DNA of 64,000 bases from Spirochaetales bacterium (lineage in GTDB: Bacteria; Spirochaetota; Spirochaetia; JABEVK01): NCBI GenBank assembly GCA_037142615.1, contig JBAXAI010000013.1, positions 32,758-96,757 of the forward strand. Reading direction: 5' to 3'. Of this stretch, positions 24,032 to 57,556 are shown piece by piece. Numbering within the stretch: position 1 is the stretch's first letter; each line of letters opens with the position of its first letter. The position numbers and the translations under genes were made by a program. The notes beneath the pieces were generated by a model, which ran no database searches, was not told the origin of the DNA, and was given only the letters and a program-made list of their open reading frames with translations.

Positions 24032-24513
24032 GCGAACCCCAGCTCTTGGAGGGCCTGGATGCTTTGGGCCGACGAAGTGTGCAGCACGAACACCCCACCG
24101 GCGTCTTCCCAGGGGGCCTGAAGCTTCAAACGGTCGTCGACGAGCACCATGGTCTGGCCGAGTTCGAGCGTCGCATCGGCCACCAGCGCTTTTTCGCGCG
24201 ACAGACAGCAGACCACCTCGACTTCCGCGCCGAGCTCGCGCGCGCACCAGGCCCGCTTCTGCGGTTCGGCCCAGTTGCCCCTCGGCAGTCCGGTGAGTAT
24301 CGTCGGTGCGAACCTCCGGCTGAACTCCCACAGGTCGCGGCCGTCGGCCATCCAGGGCAGGGTGTCGTAGAAGCCGGCAGCGCGGGCCAGCGCGGGCCAC
24401 ATCGCCTTGTCGCCCAGTTGTTCCGGAGTCTTTCCGGTCACCCGGACGACCCCCGCGTCGAAATCGGCCAGGACCCCGTCGAGGTCCAAGAACAACCGGT
24501 AACTTGTCTTCAT
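24028..24513 (-). CDS. HAD-superfamily 5'(3')-nucleotidase-like protein
   Basis: LFLDLDGVLADF (DxD), ILTG, a conserved Lys in QKRAW, and LVDD. Confidence 0.82.
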   Translation of the reverse strand: MKTSYRLFLDLDGVLADFDAGVVRVTGKTPEQLGDKAMWPALARAAGFYDTLPWMADGRDLWEFSRRFAPTILTGLPRGNWAEPQKRAWCARELGAEVEVVCCLSREKALVADATLELGQTMVLVDDRLKLQAPWEDAGGVFVLHTSSAQSIQALQELGFA

Positions 24514-25589
24514 GACAACATTGTAACCCGGAAACTCGGGCTGGAAAGGTAAAAGTACGCCACGCTGCTCCAGTCGTCGTCGAAGCGCTCAAAAATCGCC
24601 CCGGGCATGGTCCGGTCGAGGCGCACGCCCAGGCCGTTTTGCCACACGTCGAGGCCTTGGTCGAGCATCGAGGCGATACCTGCCGGGGGCGCGTTGCCGA
24701 TCTGCTGGATGCAGACCCGGATATCGGTGTCGAACCACACCGGGTCGGGGCCGTGGAACCGGTAGAACGCGTAGCGGCCTGCTTCTTCGTCGGCCTCGAG
24801 GCAACCCTGCCATTGGTGGGCAAACACCCCCTGGCCCCAGCCGGTGCCGATGTAGTCTTCGACGCCGGTGCCTGCGAGTGTGGGGTAGGTGCCATCGCCG
24901 TCGATCCAGCACTTGAGCTCGCCTTCGCCCCACCAGGTGCCTTTCATCCTGGGGTTGACGGTGACGCCGAAGCTGGCCCCCAGGTAGCGGCCTTGGCCTT
25001 GGATCAGCGGCAGAATCGTGTAGTCGACCATCGGCGTGGTGGCCCTCTCGCGGCGGTACAGCGCGTGAAAGTACAGCGCTTCGGGGCCCAGTTGGTCGCC
25101 CTGTGTAAAGTCAACCTGGTAAAACAGTTGCCCCTCGGTGACCGTGGCGCTTTCGTTGGTGACGGTGATCTTCATGCCGGTGCGGAACGGCATCGGAAGC
25201 ACGCAGTTGAAGCTGCGGCCCTCGGGGTTCGAAAAGAATGCGTTCTCCATGGGCACCAGCTTGCCGGTGTTGCAGCAGAAAAAGTCGCCCAGAGGAACCG
25301 AAACGGCCGGGGTGGCCTCGCCGTCCCAGAAGCATTCCAGGCGCAGCGCGCGCAGCATCTCGGGGTTGTCACGCGTTTCGAAGGTGATCCACAGCCGTCG
25401 CACGACTCCGCTGCCTTGCGCCTCGGCCAGCACGTGGCTTTCGCCAGGGCCCAGGTTGGGGCGGCAGGGTGCTCCCTTGCGGCCTTTCCAGGCCTGCGCC
25501 GCCGCGCCTTTTTCGGCACGCGGGTTCTCGGCGTTGGCCCAGCGGGTGAACACCCCGGCCGGTTTGTGGAACAACTCGTGGCCTGACAT
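24510..25589 (-). CDS. GH172 (DUF2961) glycoside hydrolase, cytoplasmic
   Basis: Motifs ENPRAEKG, WDGE..P.VSVPLGDFF, PMPF, WWGEGE and GTGVEDY. Confidence 0.9.
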   Translation of the reverse strand: MSGHELFHKPAGVFTRWANAENPRAEKGAAAQAWKGRKGAPCRPNLGPGESHVLAEAQGSGVVRRLWITFETRDNPEMLRALRLECFWDGEATPAVSVPLGDFFCCNTGKLVPMENAFFSNPEGRSFNCVLPMPFRTGMKITVTNESATVTEGQLFYQVDFTQGDQLGPEALYFHALYRRERATTPMVDYTILPLIQGQGRYLGASFGVTVNPRMKGTWWGEGELKCWIDGDGTYPTLAGTGVEDYIGTGWGQGVFAHQWQGCLEADEEAGRYAFYRFHGPDPVWFDTDIRVCIQQIGNAPPAGIASMLDQGLDVWQNGLGVRLDRTMPGAIFERFDDDWSSVAYFYLSSPSFRVTMLS

Positions 25590-25659
25590 GGTGGCCTCCC
25601 GTCAGACTCTCGGGTCGAACCCCTTGGCCTGTCAAGAAGTCCCGGGCTATTCTCGCCGC

Positions 25660-26673
25660 ATGAGTCCACCAAGGGTCACGATGAAAAGTCTGGCGGCAGA
25701 ACTGGGGGTTTCGCGCTCCACCGTGTCGTTTGTGCTGGGCGGCGAGGCCGACAAACGGCGCATTCACCCCGATACGGCCCAAAGGATCTTGCTCCGTGCC
25801 ACCGAGCTCGGCTTCCGTCCCGACTACTTTGCGCAGGCCTTGAACACGCGCCGCACCGGGTCGATCGGCTTGGTGTTTCCCGACGTGCACGAGGCCTACA
25901 TGTCGCAAATGGTGCGAGGCATCGACGAGGTTCTGGGGCAGCACAGCGCTCTGATGGTGCTCACCTCGAGCCGGCTGGACCGGGTTGTGGAGCGGCGCAA
26001 CGTCGAGTCGCTCTTGCACCGGGGCATCGACGGCCTGCTCGTGGTGCCCTGCGCCGACTTCCGGGGCACGGTCAGCTCGGTTTCTCCGCTTTCGGACGTG
26101 TTGAGGCAAGCGGGCGTACCCGTGGTGGCGATCGACCGGGTTCCCGCTGGTTGGGTGGGCGATTGCGTGGTTCAGGACGACCAGGCGGCAGCGCGGCGCA
26201 TCGTGGAGCGCCTCTTGAACGGTGGCGCGCGGCGGGTGGCCCTCGTGTCGTTTGACCTGGAGGCCTCGAGCTTGGACCATCGCCGCCAGGGCTATCTCGA
26301 GGCCCTGGCGGGCGCTGGGTTGGAGCCGGATCCGAGGCTCAGTGTGCTTCTGACCGAGGTTAACCCTGCGTCGACCGATCTTTCGCGCTCAGTTTCCCGC
26401 TTGCTCGCGTTGCCACCCGACGAGCGGCCCGACGCCTGGTTTGTCACCACCGCCGGGTTGGCCTACCGCACGCGCGAAGTGGTGGCCCAGCAGCAAGGCT
26501 TTCCCCCGCCAGGGATGGCCCGCTTTGGAGCCGACCCGGCGTATCACCCCAGCGGAATGTATTCGGTGGTTCAGCCGCACCAGGCTTTGGGTCGCCGGGC
26601 CGCGGAATTGCTGTTCCAGCGTTTGCGTGACCCTTCGGGACCGCCGGTGCAGGACCTCGTTGCAACCAGTTGA
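25660..26673 (+). CDS. LacI-family transcriptional regulator
   Basis: TMKSLAAELGVSRSTVS HTH, hinge AQAL and a sugar-binding-fold C-terminus. Confidence 0.93.
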   Translation: MSPPRVTMKSLAAELGVSRSTVSFVLGGEADKRRIHPDTAQRILLRATELGFRPDYFAQALNTRRTGSIGLVFPDVHEAYMSQMVRGIDEVLGQHSALMVLTSSRLDRVVERRNVESLLHRGIDGLLVVPCADFRGTVSSVSPLSDVLRQAGVPVVAIDRVPAGWVGDCVVQDDQAAARRIVERLLNGGARRVALVSFDLEASSLDHRRQGYLEALAGAGLEPDPRLSVLLTEVNPASTDLSRSVSRLLALPPDERPDAWFVTTAGLAYRTREVVAQQQGFPPPGMARFGADPAYHPSGMYSVVQPHQALGRRAAELLFQRLRDPSGPPVQDLVATS

Positions 26674-26681
26674 AGTTTGAG

Positions 26682-26710
26682 TTGACGGGTCAGCTAACCT
26701 AGGTTAGCAT
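26682..26710 (+). promoter_or_regulatory. sigma70 promoter with perfect 16-bp palindromic operator
   Basis: TTGACG (26682-87), 17 nt spacer, TAGCAT (26705-10). GCTAACCTAGGTTAGC spans 26693-26708. Confidence 0.75.
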
Positions 26711-26730: not shown

Positions 26731-27396
26731 ATGAAACGCAGCGAACTCAACACCCTTCTCAGGAAGGGGCAAGCCTTTTTCGACCAGCATCAGTTCCGGC
26801 TTCCCGTGTGGGCCGCCTGGAGCCCCACCGACTGGAAGAAGCTCGGGGCACCCGGACAGGAGATCCGCAGCTGCCAGTTGGGGTGGGACCTCACCGACTT
26901 TGGTTCGGGCAACTTCGCCGAGCGGGGGCTGTTCCTGTTCACCGTGCGCAACGGCGGACCCGGAAGCGACAAAACCTACGCCGAAAAAATCATGATCGTC
27001 GGCGAGGGCCAAGAAACCCCTTGCCACTTCCACTTTCAAAAGACCGAAGACATCATCAACCGCGGTGGCGGCGTGCTGGTGCTGCAACTCTGGAACTCGA
27101 CTCCGCAAGGCGAGCTCGCAACTACCGAGGTTCAGGTAAGCGTCGATGGAATCCGGCGCACGCTTCCGGCCGGTGCCTTTGTGCGCCTGACGCCGGGCGA
27201 AAGCATCTGCCTCGAAACCGGCCTGTACCACCGGTTTTTCGGCGAAGGCGGCACCGTGCTCGTCGGCGAGGTCAGCCAGGTCAACGACGACCACACCGAC
27301 AACCGTTTTCTCGAGCCCGTCGGCCGGTTCCCGCAGATCGAAGAAGACGAAGCCCCGTGGCGCCTGTTGGTGTCGGACTATCCCCAATGGGCGTGA
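26731..27396 (+). CDS. D-lyxose/D-mannose isomerase family (cupin)
   Basis: Motifs MKRSE, LGWDLTDFG, FTVRNG, YAEK, HFHxxKTEDIINRGGG and GEVSQVNDDHTDN. Confidence 0.92.
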   Translation: MKRSELNTLLRKGQAFFDQHQFRLPVWAAWSPTDWKKLGAPGQEIRSCQLGWDLTDFGSGNFAERGLFLFTVRNGGPGSDKTYAEKIMIVGEGQETPCHFHFQKTEDIINRGGGVLVLQLWNSTPQGELATTEVQVSVDGIRRTLPAGAFVRLTPGESICLETGLYHRFFGEGGTVLVGEVSQVNDDHTDNRFLEPVGRFPQIEEDEAPWRLLVSDYPQWA

Positions 27397-28598
27397 AGTT
27401 CCGCCTTGCCGGTACCGGCTGTTGCCTGCTCGACATCATTCACAACCGGATGGACTTTGGCTCGCCGCAAATGGCCCGCTACCGGTCCCGTTCACCGGGG
27501 GATGGGGGGCTGGAGCCGGGAAAACTTGTCTTCAATGAAGATTTTGAGCGCTTCGCCGGTCAGGAATGCCTGCCTGCCCTCGTCGAACTGACGGGCGGAC
27601 GCGAGCCCGACGCGCGCAACATCGGCGGCCCCGGCGTGGTGGCCCTCATCCATGCCGCGCAATTGCTCGATCCCGAGCTGTTCGACGTGCAGTTCACCGG
27701 AACTCTGGGTCACGACGCCGTGGCGGGTGAAATGGAGCGCCTGCTGGGCCGCACTCCGCTCTCGACCTGGGACTTTCTGAGTCTGCCGGGGGTCACGCCG
27801 TTCACCTACGTGCTGTCTGACCCTTCGTTCGATGGGGGGCGGGGCGAGCGAAGCTTTTTGAACAACATCGGCACGGCGGGCCAGTTGCGTCCCCAGCATC
27901 TGCCGGCCTCGTTGCTGACCGCCGATCTGGTGGTGTTTGGTGGCACGGGCCTGGTGCCGCAGATCCACGATGCGCTCGATGAGCTGCTGCCCCGCGCCCG
28001 CGCCAACGGGGCCTTCACCGTGGTCAACACTGTTTACGACTTTCGCCACCAGAGGCAGGACCCGACGGGGCGCTGGCCTTTGGGCAACAGTGACCGCTCG
28101 TACGCCGCCACCGATCTGCTGGTTTGTGACCACGAAGAAGCGCTGCGTCTGGCCGGGGCGTCGTCGATCCCCGAGGCGCTCGATTTTTTTATGGCCAAAG
28201 GAGTTGGCGCGGCCGTGGTGACCAACGGGGCCCGCGACATCGAGGTGGCCGTCGGTTCGCCGCGCTACGGCGGGCCAAAGCGCTGGCTCCAGCCGGCCTC
28301 GCGCGCCCTTGTCGACGAGCTGGCCCAGCACCCCGAGCGCAAGGGTGACACCACGGGAGCGGGCGACAACTTCGCTGGCGGGGTCATCGTGTCGGTGGCC
28401 GAGCAACTGCAGAAGGGCAGGGGCGGGGCCGACCCGGGCACCATCGACCTGGACGAGGCGGTGGCCTGGGGCGCCGTCAGTGGCGGTTGCGCGTGCTTCC
28501 ACCTCGGCGGGGTGGACTACGAAAGCCACCGGGGCGAAAAGCGGGCCCGGCTGGAACCGTATTTGCAGGCCTACCGGCAAGACCGGAAGAGAGGGTAA
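27393..28598 (+). CDS. PfkB-family carbohydrate kinase
   Basis: N-terminal IGGP, GERSF and the C-terminal signature DTTGAGDNFAGG. GTGA overlap with the upstream gene. Confidence 0.88.
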   Translation: MKFRLAGTGCCLLDIIHNRMDFGSPQMARYRSRSPGDGGLEPGKLVFNEDFERFAGQECLPALVELTGGREPDARNIGGPGVVALIHAAQLLDPELFDVQFTGTLGHDAVAGEMERLLGRTPLSTWDFLSLPGVTPFTYVLSDPSFDGGRGERSFLNNIGTAGQLRPQHLPASLLTADLVVFGGTGLVPQIHDALDELLPRARANGAFTVVNTVYDFRHQRQDPTGRWPLGNSDRSYAATDLLVCDHEEALRLAGASSIPEALDFFMAKGVGAAVVTNGARDIEVAVGSPRYGGPKRWLQPASRALVDELAQHPERKGDTTGAGDNFAGGVIVSVAEQLQKGRGGADPGTIDLDEAVAWGAVSGGCACFHLGGVDYESHRGEKRARLEPYLQAYRQDRKRG

Positions 28599-28599: not shown

Positions 28600-29787
28600 A
28601 TGCCGCGTTTTGTGCAGTTCGGCGCCGGAAACATCGGGCGCTCGTTCATCGGCCGCCTGTTTGCCGAAGCTGGCTACGAGACGGTGTTCGTCGATGTCGA
28701 TGTGACGCTGGTGGGCCTCCTCAATGCGCGGGGTTCCTACCCGGTGGTGGTCAAGCAGACTGGCCTGGCCGACGAAGTCCGCACGGTGACCGGGGTGCGG
28801 GCCGTGAATGGCCGCGACCTTCCTGCGGTGATTGCCGAAGTTTTTGCCGCCGATTACGCTGCGACCTCGGTGGGGCAGCGGGCGCTGGAGTCGGTGCTGC
28901 CCGTGCTCGCCCAAGGCTTGGTGGCGCGCCAGCAGGCCGGCCGACCCGCCCTGACTCTCATCATCGCCGAAAACCTCCGAGGGGGAGCCGAGTTCTTCCG
29001 CCAGACGCTGAAAAAGGCGCTCCCGGCCGACTTCCCACTCGAGAGGGCCGTGGGACTGGTCGAAACCAGCATCGGCAAAATGGTGCCGCTCATGCCCCGC
29101 GAGGCCCTCGAAGACGACCCGTTGCAGCTGTTCGCTGAGCCCTACGACACGCTCATTGTGGATCGCAAGGGGTTCGCGGGACCTCTGCCCAAGTTAGCCG
29201 GACTCAAACCTGTCGACAACGTGCCGGCCTACGTGGACCGCAAACTGTTCATGCACAACATGAGCCACGCCGCCACGGCCTACCTCGGTTACGAGGCCGA
29301 CCCCTCGTTGGTTTGGGTTTGGCAGGCCCTGGAGCTTCCGCGCGTCGTCGCCGGTGTCGCTCGGGCCCTCGACCAGAGCGCTTCGGCCTTGCTGGCAGCC
29401 TACCCCGGGGAGTTCTCTTCGGCGGACTTGAGCGAGCACGCGCGGGATCTGCTGACGCGTTACCGCAACCGGGCCTTGGGTGACACCCTGCACCGCGTGG
29501 GCCGCGACCTTGCGCGCAAACTGTCGCGCGACGATCGCCTGATCGGGGCCTGCCTGCTGGCCGACCGGCACGGTTTGCCCTACGACGCCATCGCCCGCGC
29601 GGCCGGGGCGGCCCTGAGCTTCGCGGCGCCCGACGAAAACGGCCGGCACCTGCCCGGCGACGAAGCGCTGCGAAGTGCCCTCCTGGCCAGCGGGGCCAAG
29701 TCGGTGCTGGCCGGTGCCAGCGGCTTGGATCCCGGGCGACTCCGTGAGGCTGCAGTGCTCGCCGCTTGCCTGAAGGCGCAGGCCTAG
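28600..29787 (+). CDS. mtlD: Mannitol-1-phosphate 5-dehydrogenase-like polyol-phosphate dehydrogenase
   Basis: Motifs FGAGNIGR, AEN, RKLFMHNMSHA and RVGRDLARKLSRDDRL. The substrate is not certain. Confidence 0.8.
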   Translation: MPRFVQFGAGNIGRSFIGRLFAEAGYETVFVDVDVTLVGLLNARGSYPVVVKQTGLADEVRTVTGVRAVNGRDLPAVIAEVFAADYAATSVGQRALESVLPVLAQGLVARQQAGRPALTLIIAENLRGGAEFFRQTLKKALPADFPLERAVGLVETSIGKMVPLMPREALEDDPLQLFAEPYDTLIVDRKGFAGPLPKLAGLKPVDNVPAYVDRKLFMHNMSHAATAYLGYEADPSLVWVWQALELPRVVAGVARALDQSASALLAAYPGEFSSADLSEHARDLLTRYRNRALGDTLHRVGRDLARKLSRDDRLIGACLLADRHGLPYDAIARAAGAALSFAAPDENGRHLPGDEALRSALLASGAKSVLAGASGLDPGRLREAAVLAACLKAQA

Positions 29788-30914: not shown

Positions 30915-31987
<1,073 letters not shown>

Positions 31988-31991
<4 letters not shown>

Positions 31992-33933: not shown

Positions 33934-34581
33934 ATGAAGATTGTCTGGATGATTCTGCTGGTCTTGGGTCTGGCGTCCACCAGCGCGGGCCAGGTGCTCC
34001 TCGAAGAGCCCTTTACCGACGTGCGCTCCAAGAACTACGAACTTTGGGGTGCCGCCGACTTCAACCGCGTTGAGCCTTTCAAGGGCAAACTCGAGTTGGA
34101 AGGCTCGACCGGGGGGGAGGGCTTCGGAGTTTACTTCCGGCCCGTTTTCGACTTGGCCAAGACTCCGCTTTCGATCACCCTGACGCTCGTCCGCAATGCG
34201 CAGAACCAAGGCTCCGAGATCTGCGTGTGGTTCGTCAATCAGTATCTGGTCAAAGGTTCCCCCTGGGACGAGGGCGACTTTGTGCGGGTCAAGATCGATT
34301 CCACCGACCTCGCCGTTGAGATTCAGGAAACCAGCCCCGAACAGCGTGGCATGGGCACGTCGCTCGGAAAGGTGACCGGCGCCTACAAAATGGGCAAGCC
34401 CTTTGATCTCGAGTTCCGGGTCACGGCCACAACGGCCACCGTCCTGGTCGACGGCAAAGAACTGGTCACGGCAAAGCACCACCTCACCAAGACCACCGGC
34501 TACCTTCACCTTCACGACTGGAACTCGCTGGAGGGCGACATCGATACGGTATCGAACTTCCGCGTCAACGTGTTGAAGTAG
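33934..34581 (+). CDS. Secreted hypothetical protein, possibly ConA/jelly-roll lectin-like
   Basis: GGAGG SD, signal peptide, beta-rich sequence with VLVDGKEL and a terminal SNFRV strand. Confidence 0.65.
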   Translation: MKIVWMILLVLGLASTSAGQVLLEEPFTDVRSKNYELWGAADFNRVEPFKGKLELEGSTGGEGFGVYFRPVFDLAKTPLSITLTLVRNAQNQGSEICVWFVNQYLVKGSPWDEGDFVRVKIDSTDLAVEIQETSPEQRGMGTSLGKVTGAYKMGKPFDLEFRVTATTATVLVDGKELVTAKHHLTKTTGYLHLHDWNSLEGDIDTVSNFRVNVLK

Positions 34582-48602: not shown

Positions 48603-48647
48603 CGGGATTTGCGTAAAGGTATATACATGTTCATAGTTGAATGAACA
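48599..48647 (+). promoter_or_regulatory. Internal promoter before the ABC permeases, with operator-like sites
   Basis: TTGACG (48599-604), 17 nt spacer, TATACA (48622-27). AGGTATATACAT spans 48617-28, and the inverted repeat TGTTCAT-N6-ATGAACA spans 48628-47. Confidence 0.62.
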
Positions 48648-50542: not shown

Positions 50543-52678
50543 ATGCACAGTTTTGACGCTCAGGCCGACGCGCTTTTGGCGCAGATGACCCTGGAAGAAA
50601 AAATCGCCCAGCTGGGCCATCAGGCTCCCGCCATCGAACGGCTCGGGCTACCCGAACACAACTGGTGGAACGAGGGCATGCACGGCATCAGCCGCGCCGG
50701 CATTGCGACGGTGTTCCCCCAGTCCATCGCCATGGCGGCAGCGTGGGACCCCGAAGCGTTGCAGCGCGTCGCCGACGTGGTGAGCACCGAGGCCCGGGCC
50801 AAGCACCACGAGTTTGCCCGCCACGGCGACCGGGGCATTTACAAGGGCCTTTCGCTGTGGAGCCCCAACATCAACCTTTACCGCGACCCGCGCTGGGGCC
50901 GGGGCCACGAGACCTACGGCGAAGACCCGTACCTGACCGGCCAGCTGGTACAGGCCTTTGTGCGTGGGGCCCAGGGAGACGACCCCGCGTACCTCAAAAC
51001 CATCGCGACCCCCAAGCACTTCGCCGTGCATTCCGGCCCCGAAAAGGACCGCCACAGTTTCAACGCCACGGCGTCGGCCCGCGACCTTAACGAGACCTAC
51101 CTGCCGGCCTTTCGCCGGAGCGTCGAAGCCGGTGCCGCCTCGATCATGGGCGCTTACAACCGCCTCAACGGTGAGGCTTGCTGCGCCAGCGCGTGGCTGC
51201 TGAAAAGTATCCTCCGCGACGAAATGGGCTTCGACGGGTTTGTGGTGTCGGACTGCGGCGCGATCGCCGACATCGCGCTGCACCACAAACTGGCTGCCGA
51301 CCTGGCCGGTGCAGCTGCCCAAGCCCTTGTGGCGGGCTGCGACCTCAGCTGCGGGTGCGAAAACGACGACCTGCCCCAGGCCTTGGCGCGCGGCGAAATC
51401 ACCGAGGCGGTGATCGACCTTGCCGTGCGCCGCCTTCTGCGGGCCCGCTTTGCGCTCGGCTTGGTCGATGGCCAGAAAACCCCGTGGGACGAAACCCCCT
51501 ATGACGTGCTCGACAGCGCTGCGCATCGGGCGCTCGCCCGTGAGATGGCCGCCGCCGGCACCGTGCTTTTGCAGAACAACGGCGTATTGCCCTTGGCCAG
51601 GGAGATCACCTCGATCGCGGTCATCGGCCCCAACGCCCGCAGTTTTGAGGCGTTGCTGGCCAACTACTACGGAACCCCCTCGCACTACGTCACACCCCTC
51701 GATGGCATCAGGGCTGCCGTAAGTGGCGCCACCAAAGTCACTTACGCCGAAGGTTGCCACCACACTAAGTCGAGCGACAACTCGTGGGGCGAGCGTGCCC
51801 GGGCCGGGTTTTCCGAAGCAGTCATCGCCGCCGAGCGCTCGGAAGTCGTGGTGCTGGTTCTAGGCCTCACCGCGCTGCTCGAGGGCGAAGAAGGCGATGC
51901 CGCCAACTCCGATGGGGGAGGCGACCGTGTGCGGCTGACGTTGCCCGGCGTTCAGGAAGACCTGCTGCGAGCGGTGCTCAAGGTTGGCAAGCCGGTGGTG
52001 CTGGTGCTGCTCAACGGCGGCTGCGTGCAATTGCCACCCGAGGCCGCCCAGTGTGCCGCCGTCCTCGAAGCTTGGTATCCGGGCGAGGAGGGTGGCTCTG
52101 GTCTCGCCGATGTTCTGTTCGGCGACGTGAACCCCAGCGGACGCCTGCCGGTCACGTTCTACCAAAGCGTTGCCGACCTGCCGCCTTTCCACGACTATTC
52201 CATGCGCGAACGGACCTACCGGTTCTTCTCGGGCGAGGCGGCGTTCCCGTTCGGGTTCGGCCTTTCGTACACGCGGTTCGAGTACGACCAGTTCACTGTG
52301 CCCACGAGCGTGGCCTGCGGGGCCGACGTCAGTCTCAGTGTCTGCGTCACCAACCAAGGTTCGCGCGACGGCCACGAGGTGGTTCAACTGTACGCTGGCC
52401 GTCAGTTGGTGGCCTTCCGCAAGGTGTTCGTTGCCCGGGGCCAACGCGTCACGGTGCAACTCACCGCCGAAGCCCGCGACTTCGCCAAGGTGCACTCCGA
52501 CGGGCATTCCAGCGTCGCGCCGGGGAGCCTGCACCTGTCGGTGGGGGGCCATCAACCCGACGCGGTGAGCACCCGCCTGGCTGGCTCGGCCAACCTCAAC
52601 GCCACTGTTGGGCTGCTAGGCGACGAGTTCAAGATTTTGGGGCCGTTGCCGACTTCGGTCGAGCCTGGGTCAGCATGA
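50543..52678 (+). CDS. GH3 beta-glycosidase (beta-xylosidase-like clade), cytoplasmic
   Basis: Motifs WSPNINLYRDPRWGRGHETYGEDP, KHF, VSDC (nucleophile), EGEEGD and FGFGLSYT. Confidence 0.93.
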   Translation: MHSFDAQADALLAQMTLEEKIAQLGHQAPAIERLGLPEHNWWNEGMHGISRAGIATVFPQSIAMAAAWDPEALQRVADVVSTEARAKHHEFARHGDRGIYKGLSLWSPNINLYRDPRWGRGHETYGEDPYLTGQLVQAFVRGAQGDDPAYLKTIATPKHFAVHSGPEKDRHSFNATASARDLNETYLPAFRRSVEAGAASIMGAYNRLNGEACCASAWLLKSILRDEMGFDGFVVSDCGAIADIALHHKLAADLAGAAAQALVAGCDLSCGCENDDLPQALARGEITEAVIDLAVRRLLRARFALGLVDGQKTPWDETPYDVLDSAAHRALAREMAAAGTVLLQNNGVLPLAREITSIAVIGPNARSFEALLANYYGTPSHYVTPLDGIRAAVSGATKVTYAEGCHHTKSSDNSWGERARAGFSEAVIAAERSEVVVLVLGLTALLEGEEGDAANSDGGGDRVRLTLPGVQEDLLRAVLKVGKPVVLVLLNGGCVQLPPEAAQCAAVLEAWYPGEEGGSGLADVLFGDVNPSGRLPVTFYQSVADLPPFHDYSMRERTYRFFSGEAAFPFGFGLSYTRFEYDQFTVPTSVACGADVSLSVCVTNQGSRDGHEVVQLYAGRQLVAFRKVFVARGQRVTVQLTAEARDFAKVHSDGHSSVAPGSLHLSVGGHQPDAVSTRLAGSANLNATVGLLGDEFKILGPLPTSVEPGSA

Positions 52679-54312
52679 GGGCAGGCCCTCTTGTGTTTCT
52701 CGCTCTCGCGCTGGCCCTCATCCCGGGTGCAGCCGTCGCCCAAACCTACCAGTTCCGCGTCGATTTCACCCAAACCGGAGAACCCGTCAACCGGGCGCTC
52801 TTCTCGCTGGTCAACTTTCAGCACCTGTGGGCCGACTATGGCCCGCGCGCGCTCGAAACCTTCCGCGCGCTGAAGCCGCAGGGCAGCCAGGCCCGCACCG
52901 AAACCCTCATCGACCAGATGGAACCCGTCAACGACGATGGCGACCCCAACCACTTCACCTGGAGCGGCTTCCGCACCGACCGCATGTACCGTTTTGTGAA
53001 CGACAAGGCTGGGACGTTCTTCTCGGCCATGCTTTCCGAGGGAATGGAGCCGGTGCTCCTGTTGTGCTACAACACGCCGTGGCTGGCGGCCGGGGGTCAG
53101 CTCAACGAGCCTCCCACCGACCTGAAGGAGTGGGCCGAGTTTGCGGCCGCCGTGGTGGCCCGGGAACCGCGGGTGAAGTACCTCGAGATCTGGAACGAAC
53201 CCTCGGGGCAGGGCGTGTACTGGAAGGGTTCGATGGACACCTACTACCAGCTGTTCAACACCGTCGCCGACCGCATTCACCGCGACTATCCTGGGGTCAA
53301 GGTCGGCGGTCCCTCGGTCCTCGGCGGGCAGACGGTCGCCATGCGCGAGTTTATCGTGCAGTGCGGAAGTCGAGCCGACTACTTCACTATCCATCTGTAC
53401 GACGATGACCCTTACCTTACCACCAAAAAGCTCAAGAACTGGAACCAGCTCATCCAGAAGCTCACGGGCAAAACAGGGCCACAACTCCTTGTCACCGAAG
53501 GGGATGACTCGCGGATTTCCGACCCGGCCGAAAAGCTTCGCTACCTGCTGGTGCGTCAGTTCGAACTGCTCGCCCTCCAGGACCAGGTGCTGGGCTTTCA
53601 CCAGTTCAGCCTGCCGGAATACGAAGTGTATGGGCTGGTTCGGCCCGATGGTTCGCCCGTCGACAAGAACTACTGGGCCTACTGGTTGATGCGTGATCTG
53701 CGCGGCAACCTCGTCGCGTCTCAGGCTCAAAAAGACGGCGCGCCCCTCTCCACCAACGCGCGCAATGTGGCTCTGCCAGCGTACGTCGCTGCGACCCGCG
53801 ACGGCGATAACTTGCAGGCCGTGTTGCTCTTGAACGACCCGGCGTCCCCCCCCGGCAAGGTCGTTGTTCAGCTGACCCTTCCCGCCGTCCCAACCGCACG
53901 GCAACTGCGGATCGACCGCGTCAATGGCGGGGAGCGCGAAGTGGTCCAGTTCCGCCGTCTCGAGCCCGGTCAAACCAGCCTGTCCCTGGAGCTCAGTTCC
54001 CGGTTTGGCGACGCGTTTTCGGTGGCGCTGTCGCCGGTTGCGGGCAGCCTGAACCTGCAAACCTCTGCCACGGCGACGACCGTTCTCAATGGGACCCTCG
54101 AAGTCGCGACGGGCAAGCTGTGGTTGCACACTTTGGGGCCATTGGGCGAGCTCTTGCAACCGGGCCAGGACCTCGGCACCGTCAGCGTGGCTCCAGGAGC
54201 TTCTACGAAACTCAGTCTTGGGGTCCAGCAAAACTCCCCGTTGCAGACGCGGCTGGTTGTCCTGCGTGGACCGGCAAACGCGATCCTGGCGCAGTCCCTG
54301 CCCTTCCGTTAG
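52675..54312 (+). CDS. Secreted GH39-like glycoside hydrolase, paralogue of 39273..41882
   Basis: Signal peptide, [27 protein letters not shown] and LVTEG. ATGA overlap with the GH3 gene. Confidence 0.82.
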
Positions 54313-54380: not shown

Positions 54381-56228
54381 ATGAACCTCATGTCGCTGCT
54401 CTCGCGTGTCTTCGGCCGCTTTTCGATCCGCAAGAAGATCCTTCTGACCGTCAGCCTGCTCTGGTTGCTCGGGTCGACCCTGTTGGTCACCCTGGCCTAC
54501 TTTCAGGCCAAAAACGATCTGGAAGAGGGCATCCGAACGCGGGCCCGTGAAACCGTCGCCCTCGGTGCCCTGAGCGTTCCTGTCGAAGCGCACGCCCGGC
54601 TTCTGGGTTCGGCTGATCAGGATTCCGCCGACTACGCTGCGGTTTTCAAGGTCCTGCAAGCCATCCAAAAGAACAATGCCGACATCCGCTACCTCTACAC
54701 GGTCCGCAAGAACCAGGCCGGAAAAATCGTCTTCGTTACCGACGCGACCGATCCGACCGACAACCCGTCGCTCATCGGAGACCCTGTCGAAACGGCAACG
54801 GCCCTTCTCAAACAGTCGGTGGAGGGACTCGGGGCAGCAGTGGTCGAAAAAGACTTCTACACCGACCAGTGGGGGACCTTCTGGACTGCCTATGCGCCGC
54901 TGGTGTCGGCCGACGGCAAGTTTGAGGGTTTGCTCTGTGCCGACATCGAAGCTTCGACGGTCCAAACGATTCTGCGCAATCACCTCAACGACCTCATCGG
55001 ACTGATCTTCGTCAGCCTGCTGCTGCTCATCCCCGTTTGGCTTGTCGTCACGCGCAGTGTTGTTCAGCCCTTGCGCGAATGCGTTGTCGCTACCGACCTT
55101 CTGGCCAAAAGTGACTACACTCGGCCGCTTCGTCCTGGCCTGGTTCGGCGCGATGACGAGATCGGCGACTTGGCACGGTCCTTTTCGACCTTGATGGACA
55201 ATACCCGGCAGCTGATTCGCAGCATTCACTCGCAGGCAGAAATCCTTGCCGGCGTGGGCGACGACCTCAACGGCCAGATGCAGAGCGCTGCGGTTTCGGC
55301 CCGTGCGATTGCCGGCAACATGGGCCTGATCCAGCAAAACTCCCATCAACAGTTTGCCGGGGTCACCAAGGCAGGGGCCACCGTCCAGCAGATCTCCCTG
55401 AGCATCCAGCAGGCAGCGGGCCTGATCGAGCGGCAGGCCGGTTGCGTCGCGACTTCGTCGGCAGCCATCGAGCAGATGCTCGCCAGCCTCACTACGGCTG
55501 CCAACAACCTCGAAAGGAACGCCGGCAACGTGCGCAGCCTCAGTTCCAGTTCCGAACGGGGCAAGTCAGACATGGGCCAGGTTTCGGCAAGGATTCGCCA
55601 CCTCGCCAAGGAATCCGAAGGGCTCTTGGCGGTCAGCGAAGTCATTAAGGACATCGCCGCCCAGACCAACCTGCTTTCGATGAACGCCGCCATCGAGGCT
55701 GCTCATGCCGGGGCTTCGGGCCGCGGTTTCGCTGTTGTCGCCGACGAAATCCGCAAACTTGCCCAATCGTCGGCCACCCAAGCCGCCACCGTCACGGCTT
55801 CGCTGAAGTCCCTCCAGCGCTCGATGGAGGAGGCCGCCAAATCGTCCGACGAGGTCCTGCGCCAGTTCGAAGACATCGATTCCCAGGTCGGCATGGTAGC
55901 GGTTCAAGAGCAGCAGATCCGCCAGTCGCTCACCGAACTGGATCAGGGCAGCAACGAAATTCTCCAAAGTCTCGCGGTCCTGAAAGAAGTCACCGCTGAG
56001 GTCAGGTCCGGCTCGGAGCAGATGTTCGTCGAAAGCCGTGAGGTGATTCAGGAAAGCGCGGGGCTGGCAACTTTGGCCCGGGAGGTGGTCGACAAGGTCG
56101 ACCGGGTTTCTGACGAGACAACCCAGGTCGCCGAGGTCGTTCAGAAAGTTCAGGTCCTCAGCGCCACCAACAAGGGTTGCATCGGCGAGCTCGTCCAGGA
56201 GGCGCTCCGATTTCGGGTTGAGGCCTGA
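54381..56228 (+). CDS. Methyl-accepting chemotaxis protein (Cache-like sensor, HAMP)
   Basis: Two TM segments, [19 protein letters not shown] and [17 protein letters not shown]...[13 protein letters not shown]. Confidence 0.95.
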
Positions 56229-56305
56229 ACGCGAGTTTCTCATTCGGCTTGACTTCTCGCCCAGACCGGCTGAAACTGGAGTCGGCCCAAGGTAGCCTAT
56301 TCCTG

Positions 56306-57556
56306 ATGCTTCGACGGCTCTGCCTCTTGTTGCTTCCAGTGGTGCTTTTAGCGGGTTGCCAACCCGACGACAAGTCAACGTTGCGCGTCTGGGACACGTA
56401 TACGGGCGAGAGGCAAAGTGCGGCCATGGATGCGCAGATCAGCCGCTATCACGAGGCCCACCCCAACGTCACCATTGTGCGGACGTCTCAGGCGGTCGAG
56501 AGGATGCGTGAGTCCGTTCGGCTGCTGCTGGGAACCGATTCCGGTCCCGATGTGCTCAACTACGACACGGGTCCCGCCTACGCTGGCGCGCTGGCCAAAG
56601 CGGGACTTCTAGCTCCCCTCGATGGGGCCTATCAGCGCTACGATTGGAGCCGGCGTTTCTTCCCCTGGACCAAAGATCGGGTCACCTTCGGCACGAAGGT
56701 CTACGGCATCGGCAACGAAATCGAGTTTCTCGGGGTCTATTACAACAAGAAGATTTTTGCCCAGTTGAATCTTGACGAACCAAAAACCTACGACGAGTTC
56801 CTGCTTCTGTGCGACAAGATCAAGAGTGCGGGCTACACCCCCATTGCTTTCGCCGACGCCGCCCGCTGGCCTGCTTTCCACCAGTTCAGTCTGCTCGCGA
56901 ACAACGTCGTCGGTCAGGCCAAGCTCGAAAACATGCTTTTTGCCGGAAGCAGTTGGGACACCCCGGCAGTTGTGCAGTCCATCCGTATGTTTTTTGTCGA
57001 CATGAACCGTGCCGGCTACTTTCTCAAGAATCCAAATTTGCTTTCGTACGAGGACGGCAACGCTGCCTTCTACAAGGGCAAAGCGGCAATGCAAATGACT
57101 GGCAGTTGGTTGCTGTCCGAAATGGAAACCCGCCCCCAGGGCTTTGAAGCCGGCTACTTTCTCTTTCCCTCAGTGGACGGCAAACCAGTCCTTCCTCCCG
57201 GGGGGCTCGGCTCGGGCTACTTCGTGGCTTCGAACACGAAGTTCCCCAAGCAGGCCGAAGCGTTCCTCGACGACCTGTTTTCGCAGCAGAACGGTGCGTT
57301 TTGGCTCGAGGACATGGCCCTTATCCCGCCCTTGCCCGTCGAGGTCGGCAAGCTCAAACTTTCCCCGCTGATGAAAGACGCCCTGACAACGTTTTCTGTC
57401 GTCCCCCTGGGCTACAACATCGACGTCCTCGCTGGCACCCGGTTCAACGCAGTCCAGTCAGCCGGCTACCAGGCCGTACTTCAGGGCCTCGAAACCCCAG
57501 AAGAGCTGGCCCGCGACCTGCAAATCGCCTGGCAACAAGACCAAGCGCAGCCGTAG
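56306..57556 (+). CDS. Sugar-type solute-binding lipoprotein with no adjacent permease
   Basis: Lipobox LAGC, YYNKKIF, PKTYDEF and FYKGKAAMQMTGSW. Confidence 0.9.
   Translation: MLRRLCLLLLPVVLLAGCQPDDKSTLRVWDTYTGERQSAAMDAQISRYHEAHPNVTIVRTSQAVERMRESVRLLLGTDSGPDVLNYDTGPAYAGALAKAGLLAPLDGAYQRYDWSRRFFPWTKDRVTFGTKVYGIGNEIEFLGVYYNKKIFAQLNLDEPKTYDEFLLLCDKIKSAGYTPIAFADAARWPAFHQFSLLANNVVGQAKLENMLFAGSSWDTPAVVQSIRMFFVDMNRAGYFLKNPNLLSYEDGNAAFYKGKAAMQMTGSWLLSEMETRPQGFEAGYFLFPSVDGKPVLPPGGLGSGYFVASNTKFPKQAEAFLDDLFSQQNGAFWLEDMALIPPLPVEVGKLKLSPLMKDALTTFSVVPLGYNIDVLAGTRFNAVQSAGYQAVLQGLETPEELARDLQIAWQQDQAQP

Follow-up and report, generated by a model that had tools for sequence, protein, structure and literature searches.

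The D-arabinan PUL of Microbacterium arabinogalactanolyticum is described as encoding the GH183 enzymes EndoMA1/2, the GH172 enzyme ExoMA1, the GH116 enzyme ExoMA2 and an ABC importer, and reportedly includes an isomerase and a kinase (PMC10509167). ExoMA1 is reported to be an intracellular exo-alpha-D-arabinofuranosidase with weak activity on Fruf, a specificity ascribed by the authors to Asn253, in place of Gly299 in alphaFFase1; this Asn, at +8 from the nucleophile, is the stated cause of fructofuranoside rejection. ExoMA1 alone is described as inactive on M. smegmatis LAM and on beta-capped synthetic arabinans (PMC10509167). PUL42 of Dysgonomonas gadei is reported to carry three GH172, two GH183 and a putative GH116 (PMC10115798; bioRxiv 10.64898/2026.08.13.744632), and DgGH172b/Dg71 to be enlarged by a further jelly roll and by a beta domain at the C-terminus (bioRxiv 10.64898/2026.08.13.744632). 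In the alphaFFase1 locus of Bifidobacterium dentium, a GH172 DFA I synthase/hydrolase is accompanied by GH32 and ABC genes (PMC8605356).

The locus analysed here is a 33-kb gene island in which GH172, GH38, GH3, GH39-like, ABC importer, isomerase cassette and URO-D-like protein genes lie together, inside a window (the whole stretch of DNA analysed) of 64,000 nucleotides. It shares with the Microbacterium PUL a LacI-family regulator, an ExoMA1-type GH172 that is cytoplasmic and retains the Asn, and the logic of an ABC importer combined with intracellular exo-enzymes. Unlike that PUL, it is devoid of GH183, GH116 and a recognisable D-arabinose isomerase/kinase pair, and it has in addition two GH38, a GH3, two GH39-like proteins, two further GH172, the URO-D-like protein and a lyxose/mannose isomerase cassette. 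Three diverged GH172 paralogues per locus are a feature in common with PUL42, and the secreted GH172-C is similar to Dg71/DgGH172b in its enlarged multi-domain build, a likeness drawn from the published description; however, the island is not Sus-type, has no GH183 and keeps two of its three GH172s in the cytoplasm. As in the alphaFFase1 locus, genes for an intracellular GH172 and for an ABC importer lie side by side in the island, and the Gly of position 299 recurs in GH172-A. In contrast to that locus, no GH32 is present and GH172-B carries the Fruf-excluding Asn; both GH172-A and GH172-B are overall less similar to alphaFFase1 than to ExoMA1.

Gene content of the island

Genes were assigned by Pfam searches on 45 ORFs (19.5-64 kb), NCBIfam searches on 24 proteins and inspection of start codons and N-termini; signal peptides and lipoboxes of the island proteins were assigned visually, without a predictor. 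The first half of the island comprises the following features.

24028..24513 (-) 161-aa protein, possible member only; 4-base overlap of its start with the GH172-A stop
24510..25589 (-) GH172-A, cytoplasmic; Pfam DUF2961 E 5.6e-66, no signal peptide
25660..26673 (+) LacI-family regulator, transcribed divergently to GH172-A; Pfam LacI and Peripla_BP
26693..26708 (no strand) GCTAACCTAGGTTAGC, a perfect palindrome of 16 bp present once in the window; overlaps a promoter-like site
26731..27396 (+) D-lyxose/D-mannose isomerase (cupin); Pfam Lyx_isomer 7.8e-94 over the full length
27387..28598 (+) sugar kinase of 403 aa, a divergent PfkB-family member; Pfam PfkB 6.5e-13
28600..29787 (+) mannitol-dehydrogenase-family, mannitol-1-phosphate-5-dehydrogenase-like (M1PDH-like) protein; Pfam Mannitol_dh N and C
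29789..30901 (+) DUF4432, aldose-1-epimerase-like; Pfam 1.1e-98
30915..31991 (+) GH172-B, ExoMA1-like, cytoplasmic; Pfam DUF2961 E 1.2e-86, no signal peptide
31991..33853 (+) GH172-C, secreted, 620 aa; Pfam DUF2961 E 1.9e-44, signal peptide …LLAGVAAA/Q
33934..34581 (+) secreted 215-aa protein; signal peptide by eye, Pfam matches all sub-threshold
34594..35886 (+) URO-D-like (uroporphyrinogen-decarboxylase-fold) protein, cytoplasmic, 430 aa; by structure search
35916..36788 (+) LamG (concanavalin-like) lipoprotein; Laminin_G_3 E 3.4e-10, lipobox LTGC
36828..36869 (no strand) operator-like motif TGTCTATAC, three copies upstream of the repeat lipoprotein
36894..37964 (+) repeat lipoprotein, two ~165-aa repeats; internal duplication seen in translation
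37986..38009 (+) strong terminator-like hairpin and T-run, end of the first half

The cassette at 25660-30901 runs from the LacI-family regulator to the DUF4432 protein. Its members are assigned at family level: the isomerase reaches 276.8 bits against NCBIfam LyManIsomGneg (cut-off 350), the M1PDH-like protein 218.7 bits (cut-off 368), and all NCBIfam matches of the LacI-family regulator fall below cut-off. The only PDB match of the kinase is YdjH (5.6e-06), and the DUF4432 protein matches 3TY1, a 'hypothetical aldose 1-epimerase' (3.5e-36). The URO-D-like protein has no sequence match in Pfam, NCBIfam or the PDB, and an ESM Atlas structure search relates it to URO-D-named clusters with a TM of 0.95. 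The second half comprises the following features.

38030..39133 (-) regulator, GntR HTH joined to a sugar-binding domain of LacI type; Pfam GntR and Peripla_BP_1/3/4
39165..39230 (no strand) TGTCTATAC, two copies in the divergent region between this regulator and GH39-like-1
39273..41882 (+) GH39-like-1 lipoprotein, 869 aa, extra C-terminal domains; Pfam GH39 27.2 bits (cut-off 26) and NPCBM_assoc
41894..43234 (+) ABC solute-binding protein 1, signal peptide; SBP_bac_1 E 3.1e-29
43231..45837 (+) GH38a alpha-mannosidase, cytoplasmic; Pfam GH38N and mid domains, no signal peptide
45855..48602 (+) GH38b alpha-mannosidase, cytoplasmic; Pfam, no signal peptide
48619..48627 (-) TGTCTATAC, one copy with 1 mismatch, between GH38b and the permease genes
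48663..49601 and 49604..50539 (+) two ABC permeases; BPD_transp_1, UgpA/UgpE-like NCBIfam matches below cut-off
50543..52678 (+) GH3, cytoplasmic; Pfam GH3 N and C domains, Fn3-like
52675..54312 (+) GH39-like secreted paralogue, 545 aa; Pfam GH39 33.1 bits (cut-off 26), signal peptide
54381..56228 (+) MCP with a weak Cache-like sensor domain; MCPsignal and HAMP, dCache_1 3.6e-04, below cut-off
56306..57556 (+) ABC solute-binding lipoprotein 2; SBP_bac_1 E 1.5e-29, lipobox LAGC

The gene content given in the preliminary description is borne out by Pfam, NCBIfam and the N-termini with one exception. Three GH172 proteins (two cytoplasmic, one secreted) with both catalytic Glu motifs are recovered by Pfam, N-termini and alignments, as are two GH38, two exported GH39-like paralogues and one GH3 by Pfam (the GH39 also by fold), the LamG-like lipoprotein, and the ABC components, MCP and mannose/lyxose isomerase cassette by Pfam. 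The exception is the lipoprotein at 36894-37964, which had been called LGFP-like; it has no LGFP Pfam match at E<=1 and no Pfam match of any kind at E<=0.1, and shows the internal duplication instead. The stated absence of GH183 (DUF4185) and TonB/Sus genes holds as well: no DUF4185/GH183, GH116, TonB-dependent or SusD family was found in the ORFs Pfam-scanned across the 64-kb window. Nor did Pfam and NCBIfam reveal any gene of the window to be a recognisable ribulokinase or an isomerase or dehydrogenase for D-arabinose. With GH183, GH116 and D-arabinose catabolic genes all missing, the island does not qualify as a canonical locus for mycobacterial D-arabinan. No ABC ATPase gene was seen in the ORFs scanned in the window, nor any galactofuran-directed gene in the window. 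The breakdown of alpha-1,6-mannan is usually linked to families GH76, GH92 and GH125, which were not found in the window.

The two GH38 proteins are 32% identical to each other. The nearest solved relatives of GH38a are GH38s of Enterococcus and Streptococcus (3LVT/5KBP, E 1.6e-72; 2WYH, E 4.4e-67), the latter of which we take to be an N-glycan alpha-1,3-mannosidase. The GH39-like paralogues (32% mutual identity over 523 columns) both barely exceed the Pfam cut-off, and the GH39 assignment is confirmed by the fold: the model of the 545-aa protein (AF2 pLDDT 91.8) retrieves GH39 beta-xylosidases as top Foldseek matches (E 5e-23, TM 0.59/0.65). Its N174-E175 and E275 are invariant across 34 sequences, and the clade is rare, with 36 cluster representatives at E<=1e-30 among 1.84 billion. 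The 869-aa lipoprotein matches GH39 beta-xylosidases in the PDB (~5e-06) and, at residues 694-867, resembles AziU2/Azi28 (~7e-06). For the GH3, beta-xylosidase models are nearest (NCBIfam Xyl3A, 738.6 bits; cut-off 1250). To our knowledge xylose is not among the sugars of LAM, and, judged from sequence, no LAM sugar is indicated by the beta-xylosidase-like GH3 or the exported GH39-like enzymes.

GH172 proteins

The two motifs with the catalytic Glu residues (WWGEGE or LEGDD, plus GTG(T/V)ED) can be aligned in GH172-A, GH172-B and GH172-C, and E375/E396 are invariant in the GH172 alignment. The strongest new result is that GH172-B is, by sequence comparison, a close relative of ExoMA1. A PDB search matched it to ExoMA1 (8IC8) with an E of 3.5e-129 and 434 bits (query 9-357, chain 4-353), and by our own count ~197 of 350 columns (~56%) are identical. 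At the ExoMA1 determinant position, +8 from the nucleophile Glu, the alignment places an Asn in GH172-B, in …GTGTEDYFGGAWN. A GH172 tree, which the preliminary description had proposed, nests GH172-B within the ExoMA1-like clade, together with a gene of Microbacterium humicola (L070) that resides in a GH116-LacI-GH172-ABC-GH183 locus. GH172-B looks to be an ExoMA1-like enzyme with predicted exo-alpha-D-arabinofuranosidase activity.

GH172-A also has ExoMA1 as its top PDB match (8IC8, E 2.5e-41, 145 bits), followed by alphaFFase1 (7V1V, E 4.7e-27, 98 bits). Its alignment with W298-G299 of alphaFFase1 is gapless (…EDY..(.)W-G) and places a Gly at the Araf/Fruf determinant, so that GH172-A may act on fructosides. 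In the alignment, this position is taken by a small residue (Cys) in DgGH172c, an enzyme reported to show no DFA I activity, which indicates that the determinant residue alone is insufficient. The earlier alternative of a fructoside substrate is thus disfavoured by the Asn of GH172-B and kept alive by the Gly of GH172-A. GH172-C has a Tyr at the determinant position and no match to ExoMA1 at E<=1e-3. Its Pfam domain spans residues 229-469, and in Foldseek searches with its model (AF2 pLDDT 88.9) GH172 matches cover just 314-354 columns. Relatives of GH172-C are found in Spirochaetota and Spirochaetales MAGs (33-36%) and in Pseudonocardia (33-38%).

Predicted regulation of the two halves

The palindrome GCTAACCTAGGTTAGC is probably the operator of the LacI-family regulator. 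The motif TGTCTATAC occurs seven times at <=1 mismatch against 1.6 expected, a number reached by 0 of 100 shuffles, and six of the seven sites lie in promoter regions spread over both halves, which supports a predicted regulatory link between them. The transporter genes are confined to the second half, the GH172 operon includes the mannose isomerase, and the mannosidases belong to the other half. This gene order, the motif and the recurrence of GH38 in other phyla support a mannose link of the GH172 genes at the level of sequence.

ExoMA1-like GH172 loci in other genomes

We compared the island with 80 other loci containing an ExoMA1-like GH172, 55 of them at least 15 kb long; informative neighbours are absent from most. 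A GH38 lies within 10 kb of the GH172 in 6 of the 80 (a raw count), in several phyla. GH183 is present in 6 loci, and GH38 and GH183 occur together in none. Three of the six GH38 loci are clearly operonic, with GH38 and GH172 sharing a strand and directly or almost directly adjoining: L066 (Bacillota MAG), L058 (Sumerlaeota MAG) and L040 (uncultured bacterium). L066 has a further GH172 (GH38-GH172-GH172) and, next to these genes, a relative of the URO-D-like protein at 32%, L040 also has a URO-D-type protein, and L058 carries a DUF4432 at 44%. As seen, these loci are much smaller than the island, their 10-kb flanks being free of GH39-like, GH3 and isomerase cassette genes, and the GH38s of L040 and L066 are of another subtype (24-27% identity to the island GH38s, with under half the length aligned). 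In L073 and L065 the GH38 is 6-8 kb away with unrelated genes between. GH38-context rows are scattered over the GH172 tree (4 changes), suggesting that the GH38-GH172 pairing arose more than once.

Firmicute loci of Cohnella, Bacillus and Paenibacillus (L010, L013, L014) have the order LacI-GH172-GH183-SBP-permeases-DUF6259-GH172-690 aa protein-LacI. They resemble the island in their ABC importer, their LacI regulator, an ExoMA1-like GH172 (61-63% identical to GH172-B) and another GH172; however, their GH183, DUF6259 and 690-aa protein have no counterpart in the island, and they lack the GH38 that the island has.

Proposed function and alternatives

We tentatively propose, with a probability of about 0.45, that the island is one catabolic system with two regulatory halves, which would import and trim in the cytoplasm alpha-mannosides bearing terminal alpha-D-Araf, as in a short-branched arabinomannan. 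All steps are inferred from family assignments. Outside the cytoplasm, GH172-C, the two GH39-like proteins, the LamG and repeat lipoproteins and the 215-aa protein may act on or bind the polymer. A CUT1-type ABC importer (one or both solute-binding proteins and the two permeases), with an ATPase presumably encoded elsewhere, would take up the oligosaccharides. In the cytoplasm, alpha-D-Araf would be removed by GH172-B and perhaps GH172-A, alpha-mannose by GH38a and GH38b, and a beta-linked pyranose by the GH3. Mannose could then be converted to fructose by the lyxose/mannose isomerase and the fructose phosphorylated by the divergent PfkB kinase. The simplest candidate substrates are lipoglycans of the arabinomannan type or capsular glycans from Actinomycetota in which the Araf branches are short or consist of one residue. 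Corynebacterium glutamicum LAM is reported to bear single t-Araf (anomer unspecified) on alpha-1,6 mannan (PMC2884958), and with such branches an endo-arabinanase would not be needed.

It is fairly unlikely that two unrelated loci are adjacent by chance, the GntR half serving alpha-mannoside/beta-xyloside oligosaccharides (e.g. from N-glycans or from mannans of fungi, plants or algae) and the LacI half separate furanosides. Such an arrangement would suit the separate regulators, the strong terminator between the halves, the relatedness of GH38a to the Enterococcus/Streptococcus enzymes among solved structures, the xylosidase-like GH3 and the 74 of 80 ExoMA1-like loci without a GH38 nearby. It fits poorly with TGTCTATAC being common to the repeat-lipoprotein promoter and second-half promoters, with a first half that has no transporter, with the mannose isomerase sitting among GH172 genes and with the recurrent GH38-GH172 operons. 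The alpha-D-Araf may also come from non-actinobacterial glycans, such as LPS O-antigens, pilin glycans or exopolysaccharides of habitat neighbours, which we regard as distinctly unlikely. GH172 enzymes are reported to cleave alpha-1,5-D-Araf oligosaccharides of Pseudomonas aeruginosa PA7 pili (PMC10115798); short chains would agree with the missing GH183/GH116, and a heteropolysaccharide with the extra GH3 and GH39-like enzymes. However, a poorly targeted literature search found no such glycan joining D-Araf to alpha-mannose.

The preliminary description took the target to be D-arabino-mannan of the mycobacterial LAM/arabinogalactan type. The D-arabinofuranose part gains support from the similarity of GH172-B to ExoMA1, with the Asn kept, and the mannan part is supported by the mannose link; the mycobacterial part is weakened by the missing GH183 and GH116, the lack of anything for galactofuran and the beta-xylosidase-like GH3. 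Breakdown of long beta-capped mycobacterial arabinan by the visible locus is not to be expected with both key families missing. Full use of LAM/arabinogalactan would need the GH39-like pair, GH172-C and the ConA-like proteins to supply endo-arabinanase and beta-D-arabinofuranosidase, which seems improbable: the ExoMA1-like GH172-B, the GH172-C model enlarged as reported for DgGH172b/Dg71, its Pseudonocardia relatives and a rare GH39-like clade with no assigned activity would be compatible with it, but nothing ties the GH39-like enzymes to D-arabinan and ExoMA1 itself reportedly does not attack intact LAM (PMC10509167). GH183 or GH116 genes elsewhere in the genome, beyond the visible 64 kb, would shift the reading towards full arabinan use. 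A fructofuranoside system, in which the GH172s act on alpha-D-fructofuranosides (difructose dianhydrides) and feed the isomerase/PfkB/M1PDH-like cassette, is very improbable. The Gly of GH172-A and a cassette converging, by family annotation, on fructose or fructose-6-phosphate point towards it; the Asn of GH172-B, the closer relation of GH172-A to ExoMA1, the want of a GH32 partner such as adjoins alphaFFase1 and the reported inactivity of DgGH172c on DFA I point away.

Boundary and origin of the locus

The 161-aa protein at 24028-24513 possibly belongs to the locus; it has no Pfam match at E<=1, and its N-terminus (…FLDLDGVLADFD…) resembles what we take to be a HAD-type phosphatase motif. 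A spirochaete origin of the window is plausible on slender evidence: besides the spirochaete MAG relatives of GH172-C, a single organism-named match among the 120 listed for a 286-aa flagellin is a Spirochaetales MAG at 81%.

Gene content of the island

The GC content of the window lies between about 57 and 69% (2-kb windows), and raw ORF lists are noisy because of it. Genes were chosen by a combination of third-position GC, Pfam (45 ORFs, then 17 further ORFs from 1-19.9 kb and 7 re-scans), NCBIfam (24 proteins) and an examination of their start codons and N-termini. The assignment of signal peptides and lipoboxes is visual. The gene set of the island (24510-57556) contains the following.

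25589..24510, minus strand: GH172-A, DUF2961, without signal peptide
30915-31991: GH172-B, DUF2961, without signal peptide
31991-33853: GH172-C, DUF2961, cleavable signal peptide
36894-37964: lipoprotein made of two long repeats
39273-41882 and 52675-54312: GH39-like-1 (lipoprotein, 869 aa) and GH39-like-2 (545 aa), exported paralogues, 32% identical over 523 columns
43231-45837 and 45855-48602: GH38a and GH38b, cytoplasmic, mutual identity 32%
LacI-headed cassette: D-lyxose/mannose isomerase, PfkB kinase, mannitol-dehydrogenase-family protein and DUF4432 protein
Further genes: a cytoplasmic GH3, a LamG lipoprotein, two solute-binding proteins and two permeases of ABC type, and an MCP

The preliminary description had listed three GH172 proteins (two cytoplasmic, one secreted, all with both catalytic glutamates), and Pfam, alignments and N-termini bear this out. 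The GH38 and GH39-like pairs, GH3 and LamG-like lipoprotein that it named are likewise present in Pfam, as are its ABC components, MCP and mannose/lyxose isomerase operon (Pfam, NCBIfam). The lipoprotein at 36894-37964, which it had called LGFP-like, gave no LGFP match in Pfam at E<=1; a G-x-G-x-P…F-E-K-G pattern is seen by eye in each of its repeats. No ABC ATPase is present in the island gene set.

Beside GH172-A lies an ORF of 161 aa (24028-24513, minus strand) with good third-position GC, the start of which overlaps the GH172-A stop by 4 bases. It has no Pfam match at E<=1, and its N-terminus resembles what we take to be a HAD-phosphatase motif. A long ORF (22838-24895) overlaps it; since the RelA_SpoT and TPR domains of this long ORF lie downstream of the overlap, its true start is probably later.

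The three GH172 proteins

GH172-A, -B and -C score 222.8, 290.5 and 152.4 bits against DUF2961 (Pfam gathering cut-off 27), and the catalytic Glu pair is present in all three alignments. In this family the acid/base is described in a WWGE-type motif and the nucleophile in GTGTED, corresponding to E270 and E291 of alphaFFase1, the Bifidobacterium dentium enzyme of the difructose anhydride DFA I (PMC8605356).

GH172-B matches ExoMA1 (PDB 8IC8) over residues 9-357 with an E-value of 3.5e-129 and 434 bits, about 197 of 350 aligned columns being identical, as against 149, 132 and 113 bits for the other three solved GH172s. ExoMA1 of Microbacterium arabinogalactanolyticum is described as a signal-less exo-alpha-D-arabinofuranosidase which completes the breakdown of arabino-oligosaccharides imported after GH183 endo-cleavage; its alpha-D-fructofuranosidase activity is given as weak, and it is reported as inactive on intact M. 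smegmatis LAM and on beta-capped synthetic arabinans (PMC10509167). The same report ascribes its arabinose preference to Asn253, the counterpart of alphaFFase1 Gly299, where Asn blocks the fructose C1 hydroxymethyl (PMC10509167). This position is the eighth residue past the nucleophile Glu of GTGTED in both enzymes, and in our alignments it is occupied by Asn in GH172-B, Gly in GH172-A and Tyr in GH172-C. Close full-length similarity together with the Asn determinant would place GH172-B with ExoMA1 and the Dysgonomonas gadei enzyme DgGH172a, in a clade further characterised by cleavage of alpha-D-Araf termini and dodecamer formation, and at the level of sequence its kinship to ExoMA1 is solid.

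A GH172 tree, a check suggested in the preliminary description, gave the same placement. For this quick ML tree of 92 rows (tblastn segments shorter than 280 residues excluded), the Microbacterium humicola locus and phmmer scores to the four solved GH172s stood in for the characterised enzymes; the tree nests GH172-B in the ExoMA1-like clade with the M. humicola sequence. There GH172-B groups with the GH172 of locus L066 and with that of an Acidothermales MAG, at an unstarred node (SH-aLRT 87). A search with GH172-B returned at least 7,998 proteins at E<=1e-20. Among the matches listed, the closest relatives (97, 76, 71 and 70%) are on short contigs and the next, at 60-66%, belong to Paenibacillus, Cohnella and other Firmicutes. 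The clade of GH172-B is large and conserved, and its GH172 genes are common.

GH172-A falls outside the core ExoMA1-like clade on a long branch (145 bits against ExoMA1, 98 bits against alphaFFase1). Its Gly aligns without gaps to W298-G299 of alphaFFase1, which is a lead toward possible acceptance of fructofuranose rather than a proof of it. DgGH172c of D. gadei, described as having no DFA I activity (bioRxiv 10.64898/2026.08.13.744632), has Cys at this position, and a small residue at the determinant is therefore insufficient by itself for fructoside activity.

GH172-C matches the solved GH172s weakly (about 65 bits) and ExoMA1 not at all at E<=1e-3, while its catalytic E375 and E396 are invariant across 22 relatives. 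Its predicted model (pLDDT 88.9, built from 22 sequences) matches 8AH3, 4KQ7, 7V1V and 8IC8 in Foldseek at E-values of 1e-18 to 2.7e-16, with target-normalised TM scores of about 0.61 for 8AH3, 4KQ7 and 8IC8 and 0.46 for 7V1V. Superposition covers 314-354 columns and leaves one beta domain at the N-terminus and one at the C-terminus unmatched. The model thus predicts a double jelly-roll fold for GH172-C, and matches of GH172-A and -B to the same solved structures suggest this fold for them as well. The relatives of GH172-C include Pseudonocardia proteins (33-38%) and proteins of Spirochaetota and Spirochaetales MAGs. One JGI contig of 3760 bases encodes both P0002 (76% to GH172-B) and P0395 (57% to GH172-C), which hints that the tandem of the two genes is conserved.

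Other glycosidases and proteins of the island

The N-terminal and middle domains of GH38 are detected in Pfam, with a weak or absent match for the C-terminal domain. The nearest structures to GH38a in the PDB are Enterococcus 3LVT (1.6e-72) and Streptococcus 2WYH (4.4e-67). For the GH3 protein the top NCBIfam model is a beta-xylosidase, with a score under the cut-off.

The two GH39-like proteins have marginal GH39 scores in Pfam (27.2 and 33.1 bits against a gathering cut-off of 26). The model of GH39-like-2 (pLDDT 91.8) matches GH39 beta-xylosidases in Foldseek at an E-value of 5e-23 (TM about 0.6, 17-18% identity), in agreement with an ESM Atlas search, and N174-E175 (NEP acid/base) and E275 (nucleophile) are invariant in 34 sequences. 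Among 1.84 billion representatives there were 941 matches at E<=1e-3 and 36 at E<=1e-30. By Pfam, the (beta/alpha)8 barrel with beta-sandwich and the Glu pair, the two proteins belong to a distant, rare clade of GH39. Residues 694-867 of GH39-like-1 match AziU2/Azi28 (PDB 7WUW, 8GS1) at about 7e-06, which is unexpected for a glycosidase appendage.

In the LacI-headed cassette, the cupin isomerase matches the D-lyxose/D-mannose model of NCBIfam and the kinase alongside it is a divergent PfkB member. The DUF4432 protein resembles 3TY1, annotated as 'hypothetical aldose 1-epimerase'; two papers were found that use the term DUF4432, neither of them on its function as judged by title and abstract. 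A cytoplasmic protein of 430 aa has a URO-D fold (TM 0.95, ESM Atlas). The sequences of this URO-D-like protein, of a secreted 215-aa protein and of the repeat lipoprotein gave nothing significant in Pfam, NCBIfam or the PDB.

Regulation of the two halves

The island consists of a first half with the LacI, isomerase and GH172 genes, ending in a strong terminator after the repeat lipoprotein gene, and a second half with the GntR-type regulator, GH39-like, GH38 and transporter genes. The transporter is absent from the first half; the mannose isomerase lies beside the GH172 genes and the mannosidases beside the transporter. A motif, TGTCTATAC (at most 1 mismatch), has 7 copies in the window where 1.6 would be expected, a number not attained in any of 100 shuffles, and six of the seven sites fall in island promoter regions: three before the repeat lipoprotein gene of the first half, two between the divergent GntR-type regulator and GH39-like-1 genes, and one before the permease genes. 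Through this shared motif the first half, at least in part, is linked with the second.

A perfect palindrome of 16 bp upstream of the isomerase gene, overlapping with a promoter-like site, is probably the LacI operator. At 33886-33902 an imperfect palindrome, TAATTGTC-TG-GACAAATA, is located at an 11/12 promoter-like site before the gene of the secreted 215-aa protein; its half-sites are related to the TGTC core of the shared motif, and it may serve as another operator.

ExoMA1-like genes in other genomes

A genome scan with a 24-sequence alignment gave 80 loci holding ExoMA1-like GH172 genes (best identity 65%), 55 of them at least 15 kb long and none from Spirochaetota. Neighbours were counted by tblastn (E<=1e-8, cover at least 40%). 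A second GH172 was found in 12 of the 80 loci, GH183 and GH38 in 6 each, a 690-aa protein without Pfam match in 5, DUF6259 in 4 and GH116 in 3; no locus had GH183 together with GH38. A Pfam run on 104 ORFs from nine loci gave the canonical order of the Firmicute arabinan locus as LacI-GH172-GH183-SBP-permeases-DUF6259-GH172-690 aa-LacI, and identified GH116, GH172, ABC and GH183 genes in the M. humicola locus (L070).

The DUF6259 protein (about 740 aa) and the roughly 690-aa protein are located at 7690-9909 and 11104-13185 of L010, and one or both also occur in L004, L013, L014, L016 and L006, GH183-bearing D-arabinan loci of Firmicutes. Both proteins are candidates for additional activities in arabinan breakdown, such as a beta-arabinofuranosidase step, a role suggested by the lack of GH116 in those loci.

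GH38 and GH172 are clearly operonic in three of the six GH38 loci. L066 has the order GH38-GH172-GH172 followed, after a stretch of about 1.1 kb, by a 32% relative of the URO-D-like protein of the window; in L058, GH38 is immediately upstream of GH172 with a DUF4432 gene (44% to that of the window) close by; and L040 has the order GH38-URO-D-AP_endonuc_2-GH172. Genes intervene between the two in L072, and L073 and L065 are weak cases with the two genes 6-8 kb apart. That GH38 is enriched beside ExoMA1-like GH172 (6 of 80 loci) is our judgement rather than a statistic. In the tree the rows with GH38 context are dispersed and require 4 changes (39 of 500 shuffles are as low), so the pairing is not the quirk of a single lineage. 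A single specialised subclade of GH38-associated GH172s was rejected on the same scatter.

Searching 23 window proteins against the 80 loci by tblastn revealed almost nothing in common beyond GH172, generic regulators and transporters, the exceptions being GH38 (2 loci at 50% cover or more), DUF4432, URO-D-like and GH3 (1 locus each). The island as a whole is therefore not conserved in the genomes sampled.

Some other neighbours were seen. In two Chloroflexota loci (L026 6478-8502, L029 13964-15925), no more than about 4 kb separates the ExoMA1-like GH172 from a RACo-type reductive activator of corrinoid proteins, and URO-D-type proteins adjoin GH172 in the window, L040 and L066. It is pure speculation that these neighbours point to a step catalysed by a corrinoid methyltransferase, perhaps the O-demethylation of sugars. 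Two unrelated loci (L040 3023-3847, L058 1773-2711) have a PhyH-family dioxygenase close to their GH38 and GH172 genes.

Proposed function and comparison with known systems

To our knowledge, it was only in 2021-2023, and in few organisms, that enzymes degrading D-arabinan and lipoarabinomannan were discovered. The best-supported reading of the island is a single system for oligosaccharides with terminal alpha-D-Araf and alpha-Man. Such oligosaccharides would be imported and then trimmed in the cytoplasm, with mannose converted to fructose and presumably on to fructose-6-phosphate. Family membership, the residues for catalysis and specificity, the localisation signals (by eye), the common motif and the repeated pairing of GH38 with GH172 are observed directly; we infer all activities, what is transported, what the exported proteins do, the fate of D-arabinose and the substrate itself.

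The island shares its GH172 exo-enzymes with the Microbacterium and Dysgonomonas systems, and with the former also a scheme in which import precedes trimming in the cytoplasm. However, the GH183 endo-D-arabinanase and the GH116 subfamily-4 exo-beta-D-arabinofuranosidase are two defining features of the canonical D-arabinan locus, and the published D-arabinan and LAM systems compared here, as far as described, all pair GH172 with GH183. Among the ORFs scanned over the 64 kb of the window, Pfam detected no DUF4185 (GH183), nor TonB-dependent or SusD families, as the preliminary description had noted. Neither GH116 domain, Glyco_hydr_116N or DUF608, was detected across the window. The same library found DUF4185 in L010, L013, L014 and L070 and both GH116 domains in L070. 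Scavenging of mycobacterial LAM and arabinogalactan, as first proposed, is thus retained in part: the ExoMA1-like GH172-B speaks for it, whereas the lack of GH183 and GH116 in the window, the lack of any galactofuran-directed function there, and the GH3 and GH39-like proteins, which point to other sugars, speak against it. A fructoside system of the alphaFFase1 type shares Gly299 with GH172-A only, and the GH32 adjacent to alphaFFase1 has no counterpart in the window. A D-arabinose isomerase and a kinase also belong to the canonical D-arabinan locus; the window has the cupin isomerase, matching the D-lyxose/D-mannose model, and the PfkB kinase without assigned substrate, but no recognisable D-arabinose enzyme of known type.

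For a system directed at terminal alpha-D-Araf and alpha-Man, short-branched arabinomannan-type lipoglycans would fit the enzyme set without needing an endo-arabinanase. The LAM of C. glutamicum is described as an alpha-1,6 mannan that bears t-Araf as single residues, their anomeric form not being given in that description (PMC2884958). In the literature searched, no paper combined GH172 with GH38 or GH172/DUF2961 with spirochaetes, and a broad search for non-actinobacterial arabinomannans gave nothing usable.

A bolder proposal, to which we give about one chance in four, is a GH183- and GH116-independent route for D-arabinofuranosylated alpha-mannans that combines a recurrent cytoplasmic module with a novel extracellular activity. 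The module would consist of an ExoMA1-like GH172, GH38 and a URO-D-like and/or DUF4432 protein and process imported arabinomannan fragments; GH172 with GH38 is found in the window, in Bacillota and Sumerlaeota MAGs and in one uncultured-bacterium MAG. Outside the cell, the GH39-like clade and the secreted three-domain GH172 would have an undescribed activity on actinobacterial lipoglycans. If this were true, free-living spirochaetes would consume actinobacterial envelope necromass. The occurrence of an ExoMA1-type enzyme with alpha-mannosidases and without GH183, a coupling of the two enzymes that recurs in several phyla, suggests a second way of recycling actinobacterial envelope glycans in environmental bacteria. 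The GH38 coupling and the partner proteins without assigned role are testable leads. The rare GH39-like clade, the URO-D-like protein and DUF4432 are nominated as candidates for the missing activities, and such enzymes could become tools for lipoglycan structure analysis.

Surroundings of the island

At the end of the island, the MCP and a solute-binding lipoprotein are directly followed by a gene for a 286-aa flagellin (54381-58579). This arrangement suggests chemotaxis toward the same sugars through a pair of MCP and binding protein. The flagellin matches are 79-100% identical, and among the 120 listed the single one with a named organism is a Spirochaetales MAG; with the Spirochaetota and Spirochaetales relatives of GH172-C, this makes a spirochaete origin of the window plausible. 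Just past the flagellin gene, at 59165-61897, are genes for a PQQ-dependent dehydrogenase beta-propeller protein and a CarboxypepD_reg-domain protein. Near the other end of the window, HMG-CoA reductase, an FMN-dependent dehydrogenase-like gene and HMG-CoA synthase are present together (836-4455, minus strand), which indicates a mevalonate-pathway cluster.
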